Part shown: positions 1 through 29,015 of the stretch, piece after piece
Layout of the letters: every line of letters starts with the position of its first letter
How positions within the stretch are numbered: position 1 is the first letter of the stretch
The notes under the pieces: model-generated
Told to the model about the DNA's origin: nothing
The model's input: the letters and a program-made list of their open reading frames with translations, nothing else
Database searches by the model: none
From: Deltaproteobacteria bacterium TL4
GTDB lineage: Bacteria > SAR324 > NAC60-12
Length of the DNA stretch: 31,105 nt
Assembly (NCBI GenBank): GCA_051382335.1
Contig: JBBCAX010000336.1
Location: 1 to 31,105, forward strand
Direction: 5' to 3'
Translations under genes and position numbers: made by a program

Positions 1-255
1 TCGGAATAAGCGCAGCGATTCCGACACAATGTCGATAAAATGTAGGTCGGAATAAGCGCAGCGATTCCGACACAATGTCGATAAAATGTAGGTCGGAATA
101 AGCGCAGCGATTCCGACACAATGTCGACAAAATGTAGGTCGGAATAAGCGCAGCGATTCCGACACAATGTCGATAAAATGTAGGTCGGAATAAGCGCAGC
201 GATTCCGACAAGATGTAGACAAAATGTAGGTCGGAATAAGCGCAGCGATTCCGAC
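1..255 (+). repeat. Tandem array of GTAG-type REP (GTAG-GTCGGAAT-AAGCGCAGCG-ATTCCGAC), 46-bp period, 6 copies visible (first truncated by window edge)
   Basis: GTAG starts at 42, 88, 134, 180, 226; 8-bp stem GTCGGAAT/ATTCCGAC; 16-bp near-identical linkers (ACAATGTCGATAAAAT and variants); adjacent to a RAYT gene. Confidence 0.93.
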
Positions 256-271
256 AGAACCAACATTCATG

Positions 272-787
272 TTATTCAATCTCCATCTCCTCAATATTTT
301 GTGGCATCTGGCTTCCCCAACTCTCCGGATAAATTCCCTCAGCCACCATTTTTTCAAATGATCCATAAGGCCAATCTTTTGGTGAATTGACCAAACCATG
401 TTTAACCGGATTATAATGAATATAATCCATGTGTCTTCGCCAATCGTCTTCATCACGGATCAAATGTTCCCAAAATCGGTGTTGCCATATCTGTTTTTCT
501 CCTCTGGAATTGACGGGGGTTGAAATGCCTTTTGAAAAACAGGATTTAACCAGACGCCAACGTGTTGAAAAATTATGATCTCCTTCAGGCATCCTCCATA
601 GGGCATGCAGGTGGTCTGGCAAAATCACGATGGCATCAATATGGAATGGATACCGGGTCATTACTTTTCCAAAGCAAGAACGCAGTCGATTGATATTGTC
701 CGGTTGTGTTAAAATCGGAATACGCTGGTGTGTCACAACAGTAAAAAAATAAGTTCCTCCTTGTTGATACCATCGACGATATTGCAT
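272..787 (-). CDS. REP-associated tyrosine transposase (RAYT/TnpA-REP, Y1 HUH family)
   Basis: GGTYFFTVVT N-terminus, HUH motif LPDHLHALW, IWQHRFWEHLIRDE, catalytic Tyr in YIHYNPVKHG; AAGGAG RBS upstream; REP arrays on both sides. Confidence 0.95.
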   Translation of the reverse strand: MQYRRWYQQGGTYFFTVVTHQRIPILTQPDNINRLRSCFGKVMTRYPFHIDAIVILPDHLHALWRMPEGDHNFSTRWRLVKSCFSKGISTPVNSRGEKQIWQHRFWEHLIRDEDDWRRHMDYIHYNPVKHGLVNSPKDWPYGSFEKMVAEGIYPESWGSQMPQNIEEMEIE

Positions 788-828
788 GCCTTATCTCCTT
801 TCGGAATCTGCACTTATTCTACCAATCT

Positions 829-1362
829 GTCGGAATCGCTGCGCTTATTCCGACCTACCAATCTGTCGGAATCGCTGCGCTTATTCCGACCTACCAATCT
901 GTCGGAATCGCTGCGCTTATTCCGACCTACCAATCTGTCGGAATCGCTGCGCTTATTCCGACCTACCAATCTGTCGGAATCGCTGCGCTTATTCCGACCT
1001 ACCAATCTGTCGGAATCGCTGCGCTTATTCCGACCTACCAATCTGTCGGAATCGCTGCGCTTATTCCGACCTACCAATCTGTCGGAATCGCTGCGCTTAT
1101 TCCGACCTACCAATCTGTCGGAATCGCTGCGCTTATTCCGACCTACCAATCTGTCGGAATCGCTGCGCTTATTCCGACCTACCAATCTGTCGGAATCGCT
1201 GCGCTTATTCCGACCTACCAATCTGTCGGAATCGCTGCGCTTATTCCGACCTACCAATCTGTCGGAATCGCTGCGCTTATTCCGACCTACCAATCTGTCG
1301 GAATCGCTGCGCTTATTCCGACCTACCAATCTGTCGAAATCGCTGCGCTTATTCCGACCTAC
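829..1362 (-). repeat. Tandem array of the same 30-bp GTAG REP in opposite orientation, 36-bp period, 15 copies
   Basis: Plus-strand unit GTCGGAATCGCTGCGCTTATTCCGACCTAC-CAATCT starting at 829, 865 ... 1333; last copy has one substitution; a degenerate copy lies at about 801-823. Confidence 0.95.
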
Positions 1363-4300
1363 CAAACAAATCCTCTTGCACAGGTGCCGTGTGTTTCACG
1401 TCTCTGGCCAGTTTTTCCATTTCTGGCCAGGACACGATCAGGGTGTTGTAGGCCAGGGCTTCCTGTGCCCAGCCCTTTCGTTCACAGAGGTTGTACAGGC
1501 GATAGGCCAGTTCCCGTGTGGTTTCCTTCAGGGAAGCGTCGTAATGGGAAAACAATTCAGCGGCTCCGGACTCGCCCCTCTGTTCCAGTTCACGGATCAG
1601 GTACTGCACCCCTTCCCAGACGGTGAGCCGTTTGTCGGTTTCCGGCAGCCAGTCCTTCAGCAGTTCGTTCCGTTTCAGCAACCGAACCTTGCCCGTGCGG
1701 GATTCCAGAATTCCGGCTTCCACCACCCCCGACACACTGGTGTTCTTGGCCTTGGAAAGCACTTCCGCTTCCCCGTAAGGCCCTTCCTTGAAGGCATACT
1801 GTTCGTACCAGGACAACGCCCAGCGGGTGTCGGCTTCGTACTCCCCTTCCTGCTCCGTCAGGAATTCATCCATCATCTGATTGATGAGTTGTAACGCCGT
1901 CCGTACCGACATCCGACTCCCATCGGCTTCCACCACCTTCCGGTAACGGGAATAAATGGCCATGCCTGGACCGATGGACGCCTGAGCCAGATCCACAGGA
2001 GCGATGTTGCCCAATTGAAGCTGGATCAAGGCTTTGGGCATCTCCTGTTTGAGTTGAGCGATGAACTCCCGCCGGTCAATCATCGGGGCCGTTTCCAGAC
2101 GGGGACGACACACCAGCACAATGGAGGAGGCCAGAGCATTGGTACCAATACTCACACTACGGGCTGATCTCTCGGTTCGCATGGGCCAGGTTCCGACTAT
2201 GGCAAACCCTGCCTGAATCAGTCCTTCCAGCATGGTTTCCCAACCCGTTGAAGCGGAACTGTCGGAGGGAGAGCGTCCCGCTCTCCCTGAGGGCGAGACG
2301 CCCTCACTCCCAGACAAATCACTCTCCGATTCTTCTGTCTGTTTGAAAGCATAGTACACCGTCAAAGGGAATTCAGGATGGGCGGATTCCCTGGCTCGCT
2401 GAAACACCTGCCCCAACCCTTCTTCAAAAAACTGACGGGCTTTGTTCTTGTTGCCGCCAAAACGGTAAGGCGTGGCAACCAGTTCAGGAGCTTTGGGAAC
2501 CAGCATCGTGCTGAACAGTTGAGGGTGTACCTTGTTCAGGGACCGCCGGAGCCAGACATAAAAAAAATCCGATAAATCAGCGTAACCGATGTTGTCATAA
2601 TACGGTGGGTCGGTGGAAATCAAAGGTGCGTTTTCTGGGAGCGCGGACGTCTCGTCCGCTTTTTCCTGCAGGCGGGACGCCTGCGCTCCCAGGTTTTTCC
2701 ACCCTGTCGCGGCATCTTTTTGATGAACCATTCCCTGGACTCCTGCTGGGGATTGCTGAACCACTTTCCAGATCCAGTCTATACAAGAACTAAAATTTCC
2801 TGTTGAATCGCTAAAAGGATTTCCTTCCGCATAATCCCACACCATCGGAATGGCTTGGCGTCCAAATGTGTTACGAATTGTATCTCTTCCAGAATTCCAA
2901 CTACAAACTGCTGACCAATAATCGGATCCTTTATCCACAGCAAACCCCAAATAGGTGGCGACGGCATCGGCGTAGGCGGTGGCTCCGGTTCCGCCTTCGG
3001 ACAGGGGGATTTCATCTTGGGAGGAATGTCCCTGGGAGCGTAGGCGTCCCGCCTGCATTTTTTCCTCTCTCGTGCTACTCCACTTCCATTCCTGAGGTTC
3101 GGACACCAACCCTGCCTTCACCGGATTATATTCAATATACTCGCACGTTCGATTCCAATGTTCCTGATTACGAATCATGCGATCAAAATATTCTTCCTGC
3201 CAAAACGCGCCCTGCCGATGAAGAAGACGATTGGCTTCTTTCGCCGTATAGGATTTCCAGGAATGCACAATACCGGACAAACTGTTCTGGTGTAACGGAG
3301 TGATGAGCACATGCACATGATTGGGCATGATGCACCAGCGATGGAGTTGATAACGTATCCCATCAAAATGCAATAAGGCGTTTTGTAGGATCTCCGCGAT
3401 TTCAGGACGTTTCAACCAACACTCGCCGATGCCCTGATCCAGCGATTCTTCAATGCGGTGCCTGCGCTCTTGTTGACGATCCTCTTCGGAGAGGTGTTGC
3501 AGTTCATGCTGCCATTGCTGAAGCAAGGATTGGGGTAAGGAATCCCGCAAACGAAACGTGATGCTCTGTGGCTGTTCGCCCGCCTCAAAATGGGGCAAAT
3601 AGCCCCGTGAGTGCCATGCCTTTCGTGAACGTACCTTGGAAGACGATCCTGGGAGCGCGGACGTCTCGTCCGCTTTCTTTTGCAGGCGGGACGCCTGCGC
3701 TCCCAGGTAATCTTCCTTCACTTTTTCCCTGGCCTCCCCCACCAGATCGCTGAAGGTGGTCAGGGCCACCAGTTGACGGGGGGTGAAGAGGTCAGCAAAG
3801 GATGTCATGCCATAGTTGGGGGTTTTAAAATCTCTTGGATTATGAGGCAGGTCATGCTCTGGAATCCATGTTGGATTAGCTTTTGATGCCAACTGTTCAT
3901 GTTCTTCCGTTGGGGAAAGATACACTCTTCCTGATTTGCCTTCAGCAACAATTGCCATCAGTTTTTCTTTGACACGACCTGCTTTTCCCTCTTTCCTAAT
4001 GTAATCAAATGGCATTGGGCTTTCCGTCAATAAGCAAGTACCCCCTTTTCTCCCAATAACTCCTTCTCTAGGTTTTCCTGTACCTGACCGTACCTCAAAG
4101 CGATAGGTCATGCTCTGATGGTCAAGGATGGGTTCCACCCAGGCTTCCTTGCCTTTTTTAGTGGAGAGGGAGAACGAACGGACCAGAGGGACATGATTTC
4201 CTTTAGCGGCAGGATTGGGGCTGGCCACGGTTCTGGCCCAGAGCCAGGCGATGACGGTGGCTTCGCCGCCGCCTTGATCTTCGGGAAGCTGGACTTTGGG

Positions 4301-4927
4301 GTAGAGGTGACCAATCCTTTTAAAAGCTTCATCCCGCATCCACTGGCCGTAGTAGCGGATGTCTTCCGCCAACCCTGTCGCTCCATGCCAGCTTCCGCCA
4401 TGCCCCATCTGCTTTCGTGAATCAGGGTTGACGGGAGCCTGTCCGGCAAACTTGGGAGGGATTTCAATCAGGGCTTTGGTGATGAGGACGGCTACCGGAT
4501 TGAGATCACTGCCGTGAGCTTCCAGCCCCAAACGCTGGGCTTCCAACGGAATCGAACCTCCACCACAAAAAGGGTCCAGCACGGGAGGTGGGTTGCCGTC
4601 GGTGGATTTCAGGATTTCTTTTCGTGCTCGCTTGAGTACGTCCTCATTGTTGGAGTTTTCCCACAGCACCAGTTCTTCGATCAAACGAAATAACCGCTGA
4701 CGTTCCACATTTTGGGCTTCTTCCGTGGGAAACTGATCCGGCAGGCTGGAAGGGTCATCCACCAGGGAGGCAAACAACACGGCCCGGCACGTCGCCAGGG
4801 GGCGTCGTGCCCACCACAAATGTAATGTCGAAGGGTGTCCATGCCGAATGGATTTTTCACGGGCTGAAGCGGTATTGATCGCTTCCAGCGGCAAGGCCAC
4901 TTCAATCAGTTTTTTCTTTTGGGTCAT
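1349..4927 (-). CDS. DUF1156-type adenine DNA methyltransferase with an internal in-frame RAYT domain
   Basis: N-terminal KKLIEVALPL...LHLWWARRPL (DUF1156), SAM-binding motif VLDPFCGGGSIP, catalytic TDPPYYDN; residues ~438-620 form a Y1 transposase domain. Confidence 0.92.
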   Translation of the reverse strand: MTQKKKLIEVALPLEAINTASAREKSIRHGHPSTLHLWWARRPLATCRAVLFASLVDDPSSLPDQFPTEEAQNVERQRLFRLIEELVLWENSNNEDVLKRARKEILKSTDGNPPPVLDPFCGGGSIPLEAQRLGLEAHGSDLNPVAVLITKALIEIPPKFAGQAPVNPDSRKQMGHGGSWHGATGLAEDIRYYGQWMRDEAFKRIGHLYPKVQLPEDQGGGEATVIAWLWARTVASPNPAAKGNHVPLVRSFSLSTKKGKEAWVEPILDHQSMTYRFEVRSGTGKPREGVIGRKGGTCLLTESPMPFDYIRKEGKAGRVKEKLMAIVAEGKSGRVYLSPTEEHEQLASKANPTWIPEHDLPHNPRDFKTPNYGMTSFADLFTPRQLVALTTFSDLVGEAREKVKEDYLGAQASRLQKKADETSALPGSSSKVRSRKAWHSRGYLPHFEAGEQPQSITFRLRDSLPQSLLQQWQHELQHLSEEDRQQERRHRIEESLDQGIGECWLKRPEIAEILQNALLHFDGIRYQLHRWCIMPNHVHVLITPLHQNSLSGIVHSWKSYTAKEANRLLHRQGAFWQEEYFDRMIRNQEHWNRTCEYIEYNPVKAGLVSEPQEWKWSSTREEKMQAGRLRSQGHSSQDEIPLSEGGTGATAYADAVATYLGFAVDKGSDYWSAVCSWNSGRDTIRNTFGRQAIPMVWDYAEGNPFSDSTGNFSSCIDWIWKVVQQSPAGVQGMVHQKDAATGWKNLGAQASRLQEKADETSALPENAPLISTDPPYYDNIGYADLSDFFYVWLRRSLNKVHPQLFSTMLVPKAPELVATPYRFGGNKNKARQFFEEGLGQVFQRARESAHPEFPLTVYYAFKQTEESESDLSGSEGVSPSGRAGRSPSDSSASTGWETMLEGLIQAGFAIVGTWPMRTERSARSVSIGTNALASSIVLVCRPRLETAPMIDRREFIAQLKQEMPKALIQLQLGNIAPVDLAQASIGPGMAIYSRYRKVVEADGSRMSVRTALQLINQMMDEFLTEQEGEYEADTRWALSWYEQYAFKEGPYGEAEVLSKAKNTSVSGVVEAGILESRTGKVRLLKRNELLKDWLPETDKRLTVWEGVQYLIRELEQRGESGAAELFSHYDASLKETTRELAYRLYNLCERKGWAQEALAYNTLIVSWPEMEKLARDVKHTAPVQEDLFGRSE
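2262..2313. repeat. In-frame inverted pair of CTGGGAG-type REPs in the methyltransferase (encodes SGSEGVSPSGRAGRSPS)
   Basis: Hairpins GAGAGCG-TCC-CGCTCTC (+) and CTGGGAGT-GAGGGCG-TCT-CGCCCTC (-). Confidence 0.8.
2635..2692. repeat. 58-bp inverted REP pair (REPIN-like), in frame just before the DPPY motif
   Basis: CTGGGAGC-GCGGACG-TCT-CGTCCGC, 7-bp linker, TGCAGGCG-GGA-CGCCTGC-GCTCCCAG; encodes LGAQASRLQEKADETSALP; matches 3649-3706 except in the linker. Confidence 0.9.
3032..3706 (-). mobile_element. REP-bounded RAYT element (675 bp = 225 codons) inserted in frame in the methyltransferase gene
   Basis: WHSRGYLPHF...ITFRLRDSLP, HUH motif IMPNHVHVL, WKSYTAKEAN, FWQEEYFDRMIRN, YIEYNPVKAGL; REP pair at 3649-3706 and single inverted REP at 3032-3057. 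Confidence 0.9.
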
Positions 4928-5622
4928 AAGGTTTCGTTGTTGGATGGTGAGGTAAAAAGTCGGTTCAGCCAGTCAATAAAGGGTTTCACTTCAGCAACAT
5001 CTGAATCTAAAAAACGAGCGTGAATGGCCTGTCCCATTGGTGTACCAGGTCTTTCCTGCCAAGCCAGCCATGTATGGATTTCTGCCTTCCGCACGTCAAC
5101 ATCAATGAATCGTTGTTGCACCTCTCGTATGGCTTTAACGGACTGTTCGGCATGAGGCCAAAGTTGATCGTCGGCAGGGGTCATGAAGCGGACGAAATCT
5201 TCCAGTGCGCCAGGAAGTTGGTTATTGGGCATGATCCAAATTCCCATGGTGGCCCAATCTTCGGATTGCAGGATGCTCCCCTCTGGAATCGGTTGTTCAG
5301 GAAATTGATATCCGAGTGGGGCTAGACGGTCTTTCAGGGATTGCCAACGATTCTTTACACCCTTCTTATGTTTTTCTTCCGTATCCGCATCAATAATCAC
5401 TCCCACAAGTCCATCAGCATTGCTTTGAACAGCTTCTGGCACGCTTTCCAGAACCGTTTCAGCATTACCCAAATCTTTGATCTGAATTTTTAGATTTTGA
5501 TCTTTCAAAATCAATTGCTGATGCGGCGTATCCTCTATGATTGCAAAATGTCGTTTGATCAGATGAATGAGGACATGTTTGTCATCCAAACCTTCAACCA
5601 AAAAAATACAGGAGGTTTTCAT
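4924..5622 (-). CDS. DUF3226-like (TOPRIM-like) protein
   Basis: LVEGLDD, GVIIDAD, GIWIMPNNQLPGALEDF, KAEIHTWLAWQERPG; TGATG and ATGA overlaps with its neighbours. Confidence 0.8.
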   Translation of the reverse strand: MKTSCIFLVEGLDDKHVLIHLIKRHFAIIEDTPHQQLILKDQNLKIQIKDLGNAETVLESVPEAVQSNADGLVGVIIDADTEEKHKKGVKNRWQSLKDRLAPLGYQFPEQPIPEGSILQSEDWATMGIWIMPNNQLPGALEDFVRFMTPADDQLWPHAEQSVKAIREVQQRFIDVDVRKAEIHTWLAWQERPGTPMGQAIHARFLDSDVAEVKPFIDWLNRLFTSPSNNETL

Positions 5623-6662
5623 CAGCGAACCTCCAGTTGATCTCGAACGAGAATTTTCAATGAATCTCTATCAAAAAGGTCAGCACGAATATTCTCTTTT
5701 TTTTGTCTTAATCGTATAAGCAAAGCGTCTACTTCAGGATTTTCCTGGGTGGCTCTTTGGAAACCATCAATACAATCCCAACTGTGAGTGGTGGCAAACA
5801 CCTGGACGTTCAGCCGTTCGGCCACCTCAAAGATGAATTTCCATACGTCCGGCTGGATGGAATAATGAAAACCGCTTTCGATTTCGTCGATCAAAATCCA
5901 TCCGTCTTTGGCATTGACCAGGGCCAGAGCAATGCCGAACAGCCGATTCATTCCTTCTCCCAGGTTTCTCAAAGGAATCCGCTCTTTTAGTCCTTGGATC
6001 TTTACGATAGGAATCCGGGAAGTACTGTACTCTTCCGCTACAATAAAATTAACCCGCTGGATTTCAGGGTTTAAGAGTCGCAGGCAACTGTTTACATCTT
6101 CCTCAAATTCCGTACTGGCAATTCTATCCCATAAGACTGCCATCAATTGTCGATGCGACCCATGAGCAGGGATAAATCTGCATTGAATTTGTTGAAATTT
6201 TTTTTGATCCCATATTGCTGCCGCACGTGCAAAGTTTTCATATTCAGGAATAGCGACATTTCCTTGCTTACCGTAAAAAATCCTAATCGTTGCCACGGAT
6301 TGTTCTATAGTGAATCCTATGGAAAACAGGTTTTCTTCAGAAGTCGCTTTGATCTTAATAAAGATATCATCTTGTTCTGAGCGAGAACTTCTAGGCAATA
6401 AATGGCGGACATGTTTTAGAAGAGTTAAGTTCTGATTGTTTGGAAAGTTATCTGCATTTGTTTCATCTCGATTGTTTAAAATGTTCCATAATATGAACGG
6501 ATTGCCTCTGTTCGCATATAAATCTAGACTTTCTAAAAGACACGTTTTCCCCACATTATTTTTGCCGACAATCAGGTTGATTCTGCCGAGTCGTTCAATT
6601 TTTAAATGCTCGAATACACGGAAGTTTTGGATCTCTAATGAGTTGATGAAGAAATCAGGCAT
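5622..6662 (-). CDS. AAA_15/AAA_21-type (ABC-like) ATPase
   Basis: LEIQNFR, Walker A GKNNVGKT, LGEGMNR signature, Walker B LIDEIESGFH, ATTHS; start moved to the ATG at 6662 because the track's upstream extension runs through a REP. Confidence 0.88.
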   Translation of the reverse strand: MPDFFINSLEIQNFRVFEHLKIERLGRINLIVGKNNVGKTCLLESLDLYANRGNPFILWNILNNRDETNADNFPNNQNLTLLKHVRHLLPRSSRSEQDDIFIKIKATSEENLFSIGFTIEQSVATIRIFYGKQGNVAIPEYENFARAAAIWDQKKFQQIQCRFIPAHGSHRQLMAVLWDRIASTEFEEDVNSCLRLLNPEIQRVNFIVAEEYSTSRIPIVKIQGLKERIPLRNLGEGMNRLFGIALALVNAKDGWILIDEIESGFHYSIQPDVWKFIFEVAERLNVQVFATTHSWDCIDGFQRATQENPEVDALLIRLRQKKENIRADLFDRDSLKILVRDQLEVR

Positions 6663-6692
6663 GGTGACCTTTTCAATAATGTTGATACGCTT

Positions 6693-6728
6693 GTCGGAAT
6701 CGTCGCTCCGCTCCTTATTCCGACCTAC
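6693..6728 (-). repeat. Single variant GTAG REP overlapping the helicase stop codon
   Basis: GTAG-GTCGGAAT-AAGGAGCGGAGCGACG-ATTCCGAC; same stem as the arrays at 1-255 and 829-1362, with a longer loop. Confidence 0.88.
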
Positions 6729-9700
6729 AGGTTGGGAGCTATTCCCCGTTCCCATAATTCTTTCAGGTTGTAATTCACGCTGTTGACGCCAAAGTCAGGT
6801 TCTTTGGTGAAGGGTTTCCAGACGTAACGCAGCTCACACTGGAGATGGGCATTGAAGGCTCCATCCTCCTCAGAAACCTCAAAGACGTCTGTCTGTCCAA
6901 AGTTTTCTGAAAGCGGAACTTCCACTAGAGCCAGAACCCAGTTTTCCGGTTTGTTGAGGGCGGTCAGGATTTCGTTTTTGGTGATCGTGACCGTGGTGGC
7001 TCCCTGGATGCGTCCCTTCACTTCCAGGAACCGCAAGGCAGGCAAGATGCCTGCGCTCCCAGGTGTTTGGATGCCCTTGCTCCCAGGAACCAGCGATTCA
7101 ATATCATAGCCCACCTTTTCCTGACTGACATCCCTGGGGATATGCCCCAATCGTTGTTCAGCGGCCATCACCGCCTGCATGGCGAGTTGCTCTACCCGTT
7201 GGCGTTCCTGAGCGTACAATCCTGGCGTTTGTTCCCGTTCTCCACGGAGTCGGGCCAGCAATCCTCCTGGAATGATCAAGGCGCCCCCCAGGGCCACTGG
7301 AGGCAAGGGAGCGAGTTGGCGTTCCTGTTCCAGTTCGGTCATGCGTTTCTGCAAGCGGGCCTGCAGGTCGTCTGCCCGTTGCCGTGCCTTGTCTGAATTC
7401 AGTCTGGCGTTGATCTTTCCCGCTCGCTCCTGAGCTTTTAAATCTTCCGCACGGTGGTCCCAATAGTTGATTTCCTTGGTCAGGCGGCTGTGAACCTCAA
7501 GACGGGTTTTCTCAACCAGGGGTTCCTTGAAGCTTTTGATTTCCTGGAGATGTTCAGGAACCAGTGCCTGAATGACATAACTGATGGCCTGATTTTCCCA
7601 ATCCTGAGACGACAGGGTCTGTTCCACCACGGAACGAATCAAAGGTGTTTCGGAATCCTGCAACGGTCGGTAATCCAGATAGGGGGCGGGTCCGGCATCA
7701 CGAATGAGAGGAGGGAGGGCGTCTCGCCCTTCCATGCGGGCAAGATGCCCACACTCCCAGGTAGGAATGCTCAACTCCACAAACTGGAGTTTCCTGGATA
7801 CCACACGGCGGCTGCCGTCGGTATTGCTCCGGCCATCCTGAATGGAATGATCCATGTAAAACAGGATGCGTAATTCTTCCTCAGGATCATTGTCATCCAC
7901 CAGAATGGCCCCCTGTTTCATCAGATCACGATACCGTTCCAGAACCAGATCAAGGGTGGCATCCAACAGGGGATGGCCTGGACAGATAAAAGCTGCTGGC
8001 GGTTTGTCAGGAACATGGATCAGCCCTTTTTCAAAGCAGATGCGTTCATAACGGGGAAGCACCACTTCTCCCCGCCCGATCAGGCGATCCCGTTGACGGA
8101 TCGTGGCCGGAACATGGGTGAGTTCAAAACGATTGGTCTCCCGCTCATGGAGGCTCCCCCCCAGTAACCGAAAGGCTTCCTTGAAAAAAGCGGCAATGAA
8201 ATGAGGTTGCAGGCGACGGGCTTCCATTCGTTCCATGTCCTGACGGATTTTCTGGATGGTGGCCGGCTCCAGCATATCACGAGCCAACGCTCGTTCCTGA
8301 ATCAGGGAATGGAGCTTCTGATGATCCAAAGCCCCTTCCACGGTCTGATTCAGCCGTTCCCTCACTTCCGGCTGGTTGCCGTAACGGATGGCTTCAATCA
8401 TGAGTTTTCGTAACTCTGCCCCGTCAATCGCCAGTCCCAGCACATCGAACACGGCTCCGCCCAGAGCTTCTTTCTCCTGCTCCAGTTTTTTCAGCAACCG
8501 GAGATAAACATCGCCTTCACGGGTTTCCGCCGCCACCAGATTCCACAAATGGCAGACTTCGGTTTGACCTATCCGGTGAATACGTCCAAAACGCTGTTCC
8601 AGACGGTTGGGGTTCCATGGGAGGTCATAATTCAGCATCAAATGAGCACGCTGGAGGTTGATCCCTTCCCCTGCCGCATCCGTAGCAATCAGGATTTGAA
8701 CGGACTTGTCCTGAGTGAAGGCTTCCTGAGACTTGAACCGTTCTTCCCGTCCGATACCACCATGAATCACCACGACCGCATCGACCTGTCCCAGCAGGGT
8801 ACGAATCCGGTCTGTCAAATAGTTGAGTGTGTCCTTGTGTTCCGTAAAAATAACCAGCTTCCGCCGATGCCCAGCGGCATCAAACATTTCGGCGTTGTCC
8901 TGCAGCAGGTTGGACAGTTCGTCCCATTTTTTATCCTTGCCGCTGCTTTTGACTTTCATGGCGAGTTGTTCCAGATCTGTGAGAACGCCTATTTCTATCT
9001 TCAATTCCTCAATGGTCTGGGCCGCTGTGGCCTGATCCATGATCTGTTCTTCCAGTTCCTCCAATTCCTCGGCGGGAGTTTCATCCAGATCGTTGATATC
9101 GTCTTCGTTGAGGAACACCTCTTTGACGGTTGAACCTCTGGACAGCAATTCCGTTTCCCGTAATCGGCTTTCCAGCCGTTCCCGTCGTCGTTTCAGCGAT
9201 TGATAGATGGCTTCAGGAGAGGAGGCTAACCGACGTTGAAGGATGGTCAATGCAAAGCCGACAGTGCCTTTCCGGCCGTCATCCTCCAGCATTTCCACAC
9301 GGTTGAACTCGTTCCGGACATATTCGGTGACGTCGTTGTATAGAGAGGCTTCGAGCTCTGAGAGCTTGTAAGGGACCGTGTAGGCTTTACGTTCAGGAAA
9401 CAAGGGGGTGGCATCGAATTTATAAAGTTGTTCCTTCACCATACGGCGCATCAAGTCCGACGCATTGGAGGTATGCACGCCATCACGGAATTTCCCTTCA
9501 AAGCGATCTCCATCCAGCAGGGACAGGAACAACTGAAAATCCGCTTCTTTCCCATTATGAGGCGTGGCGGTGAGCAGAAGGAAATTACGGCACACTTCCG
9601 ACAGCTTTCTCCCCAGACGGAAGCGTTTGGTGTACTTGGCCTCCCCTCCGAAATAAGTGGCGGACATTTTATGGGCCTCATCGCAAACGATCAGATCCCA

Positions 9701-10369
9701 ATCGGTCTGAGCCAGTTTTTCCTGGAGTTCTTCGTTTCTGGACAATTTATCCAGGCGAGCGATCAACAGGGGGATTTCCGTGAAGATATTACCTGTGCGT
9801 GAGGCTTCAATGCGGTCGTTGGTGAGGATTTCAAAGGGGAGTTGAAAACGGCGATACAACTCATCCTGCCACTGTTCCACCAGGTTGCCAGGACTCACGA
9901 TCAGGCATCGTTGCAAGTCGCCACGGATCTTGAGTTCCTTGATGAATAACCCTGTCATGATGGTTTTTCCAGCTCCAGGATCGTCAGCAAGCAAAAACCG
10001 AAGGGGCTGACGGGGGAGCATCTCTCCATAAACCGCTGTGATCTGATGGGGAAGCGGATCGACCATGGAGGTATGAACGGCCAGGTAGGGATCAAATAGA
10101 TGAGCTAAGCGGATACGCTGAGCTTCAGAGGCCAGGCGGAGCTTGTCTCCATCGGCATCAAAACTCCAGGGCTTGCCCTTTGTCACAATTTCCAAAGTGG
10201 GTTCGTTGTCACGGTATAACAGTTGGGTTCCCGTCTGCCCCGTGGCATCCTTGTAAAAGATTTCGACCACAGCCGTCCCATGCCATTTGATCTCCACCAG
10301 GGTGACATGAGATAGCGGTAAAATCCCTTTAACAACCGCACCACGAGACAGTTCTTCCAGTTTGGCCAT
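6725..10369 (-). CDS. SNF2-family helicase with C-terminal DUF3883-type PD-(D/E)XK nuclease domain
   Basis: LLADDPGAGKT, DEAH, LTATPH, TDAAGEGINLQ, LPWNPNRLEQRFGRIHRIGQ; C-terminal GYDIES...FLEVKGR. Confidence 0.93.
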   Translation of the reverse strand: MAKLEELSRGAVVKGILPLSHVTLVEIKWHGTAVVEIFYKDATGQTGTQLLYRDNEPTLEIVTKGKPWSFDADGDKLRLASEAQRIRLAHLFDPYLAVHTSMVDPLPHQITAVYGEMLPRQPLRFLLADDPGAGKTIMTGLFIKELKIRGDLQRCLIVSPGNLVEQWQDELYRRFQLPFEILTNDRIEASRTGNIFTEIPLLIARLDKLSRNEELQEKLAQTDWDLIVCDEAHKMSATYFGGEAKYTKRFRLGRKLSEVCRNFLLLTATPHNGKEADFQLFLSLLDGDRFEGKFRDGVHTSNASDLMRRMVKEQLYKFDATPLFPERKAYTVPYKLSELEASLYNDVTEYVRNEFNRVEMLEDDGRKGTVGFALTILQRRLASSPEAIYQSLKRRRERLESRLRETELLSRGSTVKEVFLNEDDINDLDETPAEELEELEEQIMDQATAAQTIEELKIEIGVLTDLEQLAMKVKSSGKDKKWDELSNLLQDNAEMFDAAGHRRKLVIFTEHKDTLNYLTDRIRTLLGQVDAVVVIHGGIGREERFKSQEAFTQDKSVQILIATDAAGEGINLQRAHLMLNYDLPWNPNRLEQRFGRIHRIGQTEVCHLWNLVAAETREGDVYLRLLKKLEQEKEALGGAVFDVLGLAIDGAELRKLMIEAIRYGNQPEVRERLNQTVEGALDHQKLHSLIQERALARDMLEPATIQKIRQDMERMEARRLQPHFIAAFFKEAFRLLGGSLHERETNRFELTHVPATIRQRDRLIGRGEVVLPRYERICFEKGLIHVPDKPPAAFICPGHPLLDATLDLVLERYRDLMKQGAILVDDNDPEEELRILFYMDHSIQDGRSNTDGSRRVVSRKLQFVELSIPTWECGHLARMEGRDALPPLIRDAGPAPYLDYRPLQDSETPLIRSVVEQTLSSQDWENQAISYVIQALVPEHLQEIKSFKEPLVEKTRLEVHSRLTKEINYWDHRAEDLKAQERAGKINARLNSDKARQRADDLQARLQKRMTELEQERQLAPLPPVALGGALIIPGGLLARLRGEREQTPGLYAQERQRVEQLAMQAVMAAEQRLGHIPRDVSQEKVGYDIESLVPGSKGIQTPGSAGILPALRFLEVKGRIQGATTVTITKNEILTALNKPENWVLALVEVPLSENFGQTDVFEVSEEDGAFNAHLQCELRYVWKPFTKEPDFGVNSVNYNLKELWERGIAPNL
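7038..7086 (-). repeat. One full plus one partial CTGGGAGC REP, in frame in the helicase nuclease domain
   Basis: CTGGGAGC-GCAGGCA-TCT-TGCCTGC (7062-7038) and truncated CTGGGAGC-AAGGGCA-TCC (7086-7069); encodes PGSKGIQTPGSAGILPA between GYDIES and LEVKGR. Confidence 0.8.
7707..7760. repeat. In-frame inverted REP pair in the helicase (encodes WECGHLARMEGRDALPP)
   Basis: GAGGGCG-TCT-CGCCCTT (+) and CTGGGAGT-GTGGGCA-TCT-TGCCCGC (-). Confidence 0.78.
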
Positions 10370-28813: not shown

Positions 28814-28910
28814 CAGTGTACCTTGGGGAAAGAAGGTTAAGGAGCTTCCTGTTCAACAGGATCGGTCTTATTTTAACGAACTTTGCCGCAAACATCAATC
28901 TTCAATCTCT

Positions 28911-29015
28911 TATAGTGCTCAAGATAAGTTTTGTCCTGGGAGCGAGGGCGTCCCGCCCTCCGGTGAGGGCAAGATGCCCTCGATCCCAGGGAAAAAACTT
29001 TCCTGGACAGCTATA
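28911..29015. mobile_element. MITE-like element with imperfect TATAG-ended inverted repeats enclosing a CTGGGAGC REP pair (28936-28989)
   Basis: Left TATAGTGCTCAAGATAAGTTTTGTCCTGGG versus reverse complement of right TATAGCTGTCCAGGAAAGTTTTTTCCCTGGG; inner hairpins GAGGGCG-TCC-CGCCCTC and GAGGGCA-AGA-TGCCCTC. Confidence 0.6.

Follow-up and report, generated by a model that had tools for sequence, protein, structure and literature searches.

An in-frame REP–RAYT–REP cassette inside the hmaB methyltransferase gene of an Hma defence operon

The 31,105-nt contig JBBCAX010000336.1 of Deltaproteobacteria bacterium TL4 (C336; analysed as a whole and referred to as the window) belongs to a repeat-rich draft genome of 445 contigs (6.6 Mb, 43% GC) and carries hmaB, a methyltransferase gene of the Hma defence system (i.e., a DUF499-centred, BREX-related system). 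Within the hmaB open reading frame (ORF) lies a REP-associated tyrosine transposase (RAYT) with its repetitive extragenic palindromes (REPs), arranged as follows:

1349..4927, minus strand: hmaB, DUF1156 N6-adenine methyltransferase-type gene (PADLOC HmaB, DUF1156)
4556..4576, minus strand: S-adenosylmethionine-binding motif DPFCGGG, residues 118–124 (translation and alignment)
3032..3706, minus strand: in-frame REP–RAYT–REP cassette, codons 408–632 (insert relative to the empty reference P0017 at residue ~406–414)
3649..3706, minus strand: upstream REP doublet with two 7-bp stems, 3-nt loops and a CTGG foot (fold), translated as a disordered linker
3068..3616, minus strand: RAYT/TnpA-REP core, residues 438–620 (Pfam, NCBIfam, PDB sequence and fold matches)
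3032..3056, plus strand: downstream single REP arm, inverted, with one stem position changed (repeat search, fold)
3017..3031, minus strand: 15-nt remnant after the right REP (G-H-S-S-Q), missing in most filled relatives
2635..2692, minus strand: second in-frame REP doublet, just before DPPY (repeat search)
2600..2611, minus strand: catalytic DPPY, residues 773–776 (translation and alignment)
2261..2313, minus strand: third in-frame REP-type doublet (repeat search, fold)

A RAYT within the reading frame of a methyltransferase

The hmaB ORF is stop-free over 1192 aa, inserts included, and its PADLOC HmaB match (1233 bits) is split in two stretches on either side of the insert, with the DUF1156 domain at residues 11–81 (Pfam). 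Both D118, P119, F120 and G122–G124 of the first motif and the entire DPPY are invariant across 111 aligned proteins, 69 of which are RAYT-filled. Since Foldseek on the host part returned only weak methyltransferase matches (E ~0.1), the host fold assignment rests on sequence profiles.

The initial annotation of this locus had proposed an in-frame RAYT between these two motifs of a defence methyltransferase, measuring 675 bp from REP end to REP end, and each of these points held up. In particular, a match of residues ~438–620 to the Y1 transposase model, on which that annotation had staked its proposal beforehand, was obtained over the cut-off (Pfam Y1_Tnp, E 3e-10). The core moreover scored 91.7 bits against NCBIfam REP_Tyr_transpos (NF047646; cut-off 80), compared to 22 bits against the IS200 model, far under its cut-off of 55, and E. 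coli TnpA-REP (4ER8) was the best match both by sequence (E 1.7e-6) and by predicted fold (Foldseek, E 9e-6). The HUH motif (H537-V-H539, 3311–3319) is intact, as is the Y597---N601-P602 motif with the catalytic Y597 at 3137–3139. Quentin et al. give Y---NP as the mark of class 2, to which TnpA-REP belongs (10.1101/279083). Both marks of the RAYT/TnpA-REP class (i.e., the HUH and Y---NP motifs, and the TnpA-REP fold) are therefore present, with Y---NP standing in place of the Y---Q of IS200/IS605 elements. Those elements also tend to occur as several near-identical copies in a genome, whereas the next relative in this genome is 39% identical.

The cassette has neither a start nor a stop of its own. 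As initially annotated, no stop and no ATG precede the HUH motif; between codon 408 and M534 an in-frame GTG is likewise absent, and the five in-frame TTG codons found there, conceivable as starts, have no evident ribosome site. A consensus scan of 3500–4000 yielded no internal promoter for the RAYT on the coding strand. In the predicted structural model (mean pLDDT 80, pTM 0.68), the RAYT is a confident domain (pLDDT mostly 75–95 over residues 451–620) on low-confidence linkers (412–445 and 623–635), all situated between helices 383–408 and 649–670. The prediction is thus of a RAYT that folds separately, tethered by disordered linkers that the REPs encode, with the methylase core undisturbed.

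The inverted REPs described in the initial annotation as bounding the segment needed some refinement. The inverted CTGGGAGC ends at both edges are real, so that hairpins lie on both flanks as in a REPtron (i.e., a RAYT with its REPs), although the upstream side holds a doublet and the downstream side a single weak arm. Furthermore, the remnant at 3017–3031 is probably a decayed REP end, which would move the cassette edge to 3017. The 58-bp upstream doublet folds at -26.1 kcal/mol (z -7.7 vs. shuffles), and the foot, four bases before the 7-bp stem, is CTGG rather than the GT[AG]G of REPtrons. Its twin just before DPPY is a direct repeat 338 codons away with 55 of 58 nt identical, and this doublet variant has no further copies in the genome; this uniqueness and identity together suggest local copying or conversion. 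Genome-wide, six of the eight REP loci within long frames are in hmaA or hmaB.

Distribution among HmaB alleles and other host genes

From several similarity searches, 194 HmaB-like proteins were pooled, and insertion sites were labelled by HmaB reference position. RAYTs were found at ~170–179 (site A), ~219, ~272 and ~406–413 (site C, as in the window), amounting to 151 domains: 124 proteins have one at C, 14 at A, four at A and C, four at ~272 and one at ~219, while 47 have none. All four sites lie between motif I and DPPY and, given that the target-recognition insert of these methylases has been placed after core strand 2 (10.1101/2025.10.09.681413), probably fall in that insert. Of the 151 embedded domains, 151 and 150 retain the respective HUH histidines and 150 the tyrosine, collection by similarity lending some bias to these counts. 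No Met occurs in 100 of 127 site-C linkers, vs. a Met upstream in 41 of 49 free RAYT frames.

How common filled alleles appear depends on the ranking, as whole-protein similarity favours them (73 of the best 120 matches). When ranked on host residues 150–400 only, 2 of 119 proteins were filled, as were 3 of 80 host-ranked metagenome loci (two of these three being probable near-duplicates). Within the phylum, 2 of 87 other genomes have an hmaB-like gene (42% identical over the part queried), with frames of 968 and 674 aa that gave no RAYT match.

A draft as fragmented and repeat-rich as this one might in principle have joined a free REPtron to a methylase gene during assembly. With 124 proteins from other sources carrying a RAYT at the same site, complete chromosomes included, and the same junction sequence recurring in other sources, such an artefact is hardly credible.

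Most filled site-C alleles pass from D-(A/Y) into the REP at its CTG codon, and at the other junction of most of them the reverse REP directly abuts D-D/E-x-P-L, whereas 15 extra nt lie between in the window. The empty loop reads D-A-x-x-A-G-L-P-D-D-x-x-x-L, with ~ten residues between that D and P/L. Judging from these alignments, the insertion replaced five or six host codons, and because of this replacement a clean removal would not restore the loop. Loop length in empty alleles varies from -18 to +15 residues, by which measure the site-C loop is dispensable. REP-coded or linker-like scars without a RAYT were seen by eye at site C of P0041, P0111, P0043 and P0266 (REP-coded peptides at insert edges were likewise judged by eye). 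In L081, doublets 98% identical flank the cassette as direct repeats, an arrangement that would provide a ready path to such scars.

These junctions bear on the suggestion of the initial annotation that removing the segment recreates an uninterrupted homologue and that the element may excise precisely. Inteins have an N-terminal Cys/Ser and a C-terminal His-Asn before Cys/Ser/Thr; the cassette instead ends in L408 and Q632|G, and no Hint match was found in Pfam or NCBIfam. An intein- or intron-like element that restores the native methylase at the DNA, RNA or protein level would fit the whole number of codons and the CT at the start of both ends, a dinucleotide that TnpA-REP cleaves (PMC8266576). 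Nevertheless, the terminal residues are of the wrong type, the rejoined loop differs from that of empty alleles, and REP-coded scars remain where the RAYT has been lost naturally, making precise excision or splicing very improbable. What is supported of the intein-like parasite initially envisaged is an in-frame element that spares its host gene, patchy across several sites and hosts and with a tree discordant from theirs; splicing residues are absent, and the RAYT is predicted to stay in the protein as a folded domain.

Two further observations concern the same loop. The native site-C loop codons of L036 and L053 resemble a REP arm (closely so in L036), which may help explain repeated hits on this loop. 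In P0289, residues ~450–630 form an in-frame DUF559 nuclease with palindrome-like peptide flanks, possibly a second kind of in-frame cassette.

A genome search with the RAYT returned at least 585 loci, the best 80 of which were analysed. Within these 80, 31 RAYTs lie in frames of at least 380 aa (15 hmaB, five MmeI-type, four Type III Mod-type, one Eco57I-type, one HsdM-type, PurH, and four others with the RAYT at one end), and 49 lie in short frames with no hmaB match nearby. The survey proposed in the initial annotation thereby found RAYTs at this very site (site C only in 124 of the 194 proteins) and in other restriction–modification enzymes (11 of the best 80 loci). The PurH insert is in frame (L088:5266–7617), and one MetH (P0134), from a separate search outside the best 80 loci, has two RAYT-like inserts. 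Among the 15 hmaB loci, the frame is broken at the cassette edge in two (L047, L074) and elsewhere in L057, and one is cut by a contig end; since roughly two in three insertions would be out of frame by chance, we infer selection for frame. TL4 itself has a second in-frame RAYT, with a different REP (G000:C345:8706–10592, minus strand; L184:2710–4593), in a PglXI-type methyltransferase whose frame is shortened to 628 codons and from which part of the C-terminal half seems to be missing.

REP-like arms were counted at the DNA level for the 77 of the 80 loci with enough flank, and occurred on both sides of the RAYT at 14/14 hmaB loci (vs. 2/14 control stretches), 13/17 other long-frame or unclassified loci (vs. 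1/16) and 25/46 free RAYTs (vs. 4/38). Homologues that all carry the segment without REP boundaries, the contrary outcome foreseen in the initial annotation, are thus not what is found: empty alleles exist, and every hmaB locus examined has arms. Pairing was assessed in 46 arms chosen by likeness to the window arm (43 of 45, two out-of-register arms having been dropped, plus three from the window). Pairing in their 7-bp stem amounts to 98%, and 27 changes are two-sided, a result reached by none of 500 shuffles. Because some of these paired changes alter the encoded residue, the hairpin constraint acts on the DNA.

Host and cassette histories, the REP family and the hma operon

Hosts were compared over 755 columns without the insert loops in 165 proteins of at least 850 aa. 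None of the 25 nearest hosts is filled, and the empty P0009 (75%) is the sister of this HmaB, with an SH-aLRT support of 100 in a tree of 28 hand-picked proteins. In that tree, monophyly of the 14 site-C hosts included was rejected (p-AU 2e-44). In a comparison of 102 site-C proteins, RAYT identity is weakly correlated with that of the hosts (rho 0.27): the RAYTs of P0191 and L035 are 91% identical in hosts 56% identical, and conversely P0018 and L051 are 88% identical hosts with a common insertion site and RAYTs 56% identical. Embedded RAYTs are intermingled with free ones on a FastTree tree in which many nodes are weak. The cassette is consequently not free-standing, extragenic and inherited with its host, as REPtrons are, but lies inside an ORF with discordant trees.

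The second option of the initial annotation was a domesticated fusion, in which HmaB recruited the HUH domain to nick phage or host DNA in defence or specificity change. In keeping with this, 26 of the 31 long-frame hosts among the best 80 loci are Hma or restriction–modification enzymes (the query being biased towards HmaB hosts), the RAYT lies together with a variable segment between the twin 58-bp repeats, and the active site is under purifying selection while embedded. The latter is apparent in one clade of 43 where cassette and host co-diverge: of the 37 positions that free RAYTs conserve, 33 do not vary there, vs. 49 of the 144 other positions. However, recruitment sits poorly with 2/119 filled nearest hosts, four different HmaB sites, the same cassette in PurH and MetH, and hairpins kept by compensatory changes despite residue changes, and HmaA alone gave defence in Halomonas (PMC11232893). 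We consider it unlikely overall, and a candidate chiefly for the clade of 43.

The genome holds 337 REP arms in 171 loci (none in the reversed control), and the exact REP pattern, with 69 matches here, was found in 1 of 40 relatives. Out of 17 Y1/RAYT loci, just two lie no more than 500 bp from a CTGG-type REP, namely the embedded RAYT and a truncated one of another type, and the doublet at the start of the latter (on C135) is read as an insertion of a transposable element of the miniature inverted-repeat type (MITE). One copy of this ~105-bp MITE-like element lies at window 28910–29015, with TATAG...CTATA ends and a 54-bp CTGG-type doublet, and at least ~65 others are found elsewhere in the genome, including one in frame inside a transposase-like open frame (G000:C258:2190–2243). 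It is apparently a case of a REP captured by another mobile element. MITEs are mobilised by the transposase of another element; a longer cognate element with these ends was not found in the genome, which gave four end-only matches. Correia-type MITEs have a similar end sequence (10.1101/2021.07.10.451892). A bloom of the 171 REP loci driven by the embedded RAYT was considered and dropped as proof: because most doublets lie in the TATA-ended MITE, the REP count does not show the embedded enzyme to be active. REP matches were also examined in two other genomes that contain an embedded RAYT; the first has 57 of them and a free RAYT.

This REP family also allows the cassette to be seen as a passive passenger, landing rarely in frame in tolerant loops, its RAYT kept for REP upkeep and its swaps between alleles being ordinary host recombination unaided by the enzyme. 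The embedded RAYT is indeed the only intact one near CTGG-type REPs, a family with 171 loci here and a presence in 1 of 40 relatives, hmaB alleles are mosaic anyway, and the same loop also accepts the DUF559 cassette. Nonetheless, a junction identical to the codon recurs in hosts of many phyla, RAYTs remain 91% identical in hosts only 56% identical, and one complete genome retains an embedded RAYT although its REP matches are not dispersed, so that a mere passenger seems improbable.

The operon around hmaB comprises these further features:

6725..10369, minus strand: hmaA, SNF2 helicase-nuclease with two in-frame REP inserts (Pfam, PADLOC)
7038–7062 and 7710–7760: the two in-frame REP inserts, hmaA being on the minus strand (repeat search)
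4924..6755, minus strand: PDC-M38-like ATPase and DUF3226 pair, nested between hmaA and hmaB (Pfam, PADLOC)
1..1365, minus strand: separate free-standing REPtron with RAYT 272–787 and GTAG-type REP arrays, between hmaB and hmaC (profile and repeat analysis)

HmaA and HmaB are thus in the window and HmaC at the start of contig C349, which together give the three genes of an Hma system in the order hmaA, hmaB, hmaC, provided that both contigs join via the REP array common to the window end and C349, as we infer. The GTAG-type arrays (window 1–1365; G000:C349:1–220) have 36- and 46-bp periods, and the hmaB stop codon sits at their edge. Since the GC content of hmaA and hmaB (53–55%) exceeds that of five other window genes (41–48%) and of the genome, the hma operon is probably of foreign origin. 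The nested pair has 42–45% GC within this 53% GC operon.

A mobile in-frame cassette and its relation to known systems

We favour, with a probability of roughly 0.7, that the REP–RAYT–REP unit in the hmaB loop is a mobile cassette that is translated as a domain of its host protein, nicks single-stranded DNA (ssDNA) at its own hairpins, moves by recombination and rides a defence island between species. This draws on its observed anatomy and frame, its four HmaB sites and other hosts, its patchiness and discordant trees, and its conserved active site and pairing. TnpA-REP is monomeric (10.1101/279083); its activities are ssDNA cleavage at C|T close to REP hairpins and strand transfer (PMC8266576). 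Because of this monomeric state, a single embedded domain could act alone and without excision from the protein, by analogy with the E. coli enzyme. The host gene would supply promoter, start and stop, with the cassette being read through in HmaB; out-of-frame arrivals would be purged and in-frame ones tolerated in a dispensable loop. Nicks or ssDNA intermediates may then promote transfer of the cassette and short flanks between alleles, while the defence island would carry it across phyla, and loss would be imprecise, leaving REP-coded scars.

Several results weigh against a mobile cassette. A near-identical empty allele was found neither among the proteins (best 75%, P0009) nor in 80 metagenome loci (best 71%), and with the closest at 75% this arrival can neither be dated nor told from a loss in P0009. 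The site-C label needs 7 changes on the 28-protein host tree vs. 9.7 in shuffles (34 of 500 as low), and repeated loss could account for some of the patchiness. The clade of 43 shows cassette and host diverging together (rho 0.86, on 37), which indicates long residence rather than frequent movement. A sliding-window comparison gave weak flank co-conversion (one 30-residue window, 75% among filled vs. 71% among empty alleles), and plasmid and phage collections held no cassette match at E 1e-25 and 1e-15. The downstream arm at 3032–3056 with its flanks folds no better than shuffles (z -0.5), 65 of 110 genomic REP doublets lie in the MITE-like element (background 4/5000), and the second of the two other genomes with an embedded RAYT, which is complete, has REP matches inside hmaB only.

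More tentatively, the cassette might represent a new type of homing, in which an HUH/Y1 nickase spliced from neither RNA nor protein, and acting from within its host enzyme, copies itself into empty hmaB and, via the twin 58-bp repeats, also swaps the variable segment before DPPY, changing methylase specificity.

Compared to known systems, the mobile cassette proposed here shares with REPtrons the HUH and Y---NP core, the 4ER8 fold, inverted hairpins with a tetranucleotide foot, and a single copy. A cognate REP family dispersed in the genome may be a further common trait, in that 171 loci have the arm here, but most doublets are in the MITE-like element. It differs in its intragenic position without start or stop, its CTGG instead of GT[AG]G foot, its horizontally moving defence island and its discordance with the host tree, whereas RAYTs have been reported to lie outside genes, to be passed on vertically and to be missing from mobile elements (10.1101/2021.07.10.451892). 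On sequence grounds, enzyme and ends make the hmaB cassette a REPtron, whereas position and inheritance do not. In-frame REPs within genes are already known (PMC3733652), as are REPs inside tnpA-REP itself. Palindromes known to enter genes in frame and to be translated as loop peptides have a parallel in the REP-only inserts of the hma operon, although the known inserts are enzyme-free and 20–30 codons long, in contrast to the whole enzyme gene in hmaB.

Whole RAYTs in frame inside host genes were found described nowhere in the full-text literature searched (subscription journals being mostly outside it), and supplements of PMC3733652 and 10.1101/279083 may list cases. The Hma system as reported (PMC11232893; 10.1101/2025.10.09.681413) has the same gene order with defence genes nested between, and the available text of both papers mentions no transposase domain in HmaB. 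The host-sparing IStrons (IS605/IS607 in group I introns; 10.1101/2023.11.20.567912) are related to Y1 transposases.

The cassette, at ~0.7 kb, is intron-free and keeps the frame open, unlike IStrons, which are removed by RNA splicing. Inteins with homing endonucleases are in-frame, nuclease-bearing inserts with site-specific lineages and a patchy occurrence among alleles. The cassette resembles them in all these respects and differs in having no splicing residues, in occupying variable loops instead of conserved motifs, and in its ssDNA HUH/Y1 enzyme.

RAYTs are described as immobile; for their arrival in new lineages, this in-frame subfamily offers a candidate vehicle in the form of defence islands. 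The in-frame habit in defence methyltransferases and some housekeeping enzymes would give shelter, with no gene broken, and borrowed expression; it also shows that HmaB loops accept a nuclease of 200 residues. Likewise, it explains mis-named database entries such as a 1200-aa "REP-associated tyrosine transposase", and points back to long sequences left out of the main RAYT classification as fusions or misannotations (10.1101/279083). Finally, filled and empty hmaB alleles would provide a direct assay for RAYT mobility, which the literature examined has not seen in vivo.

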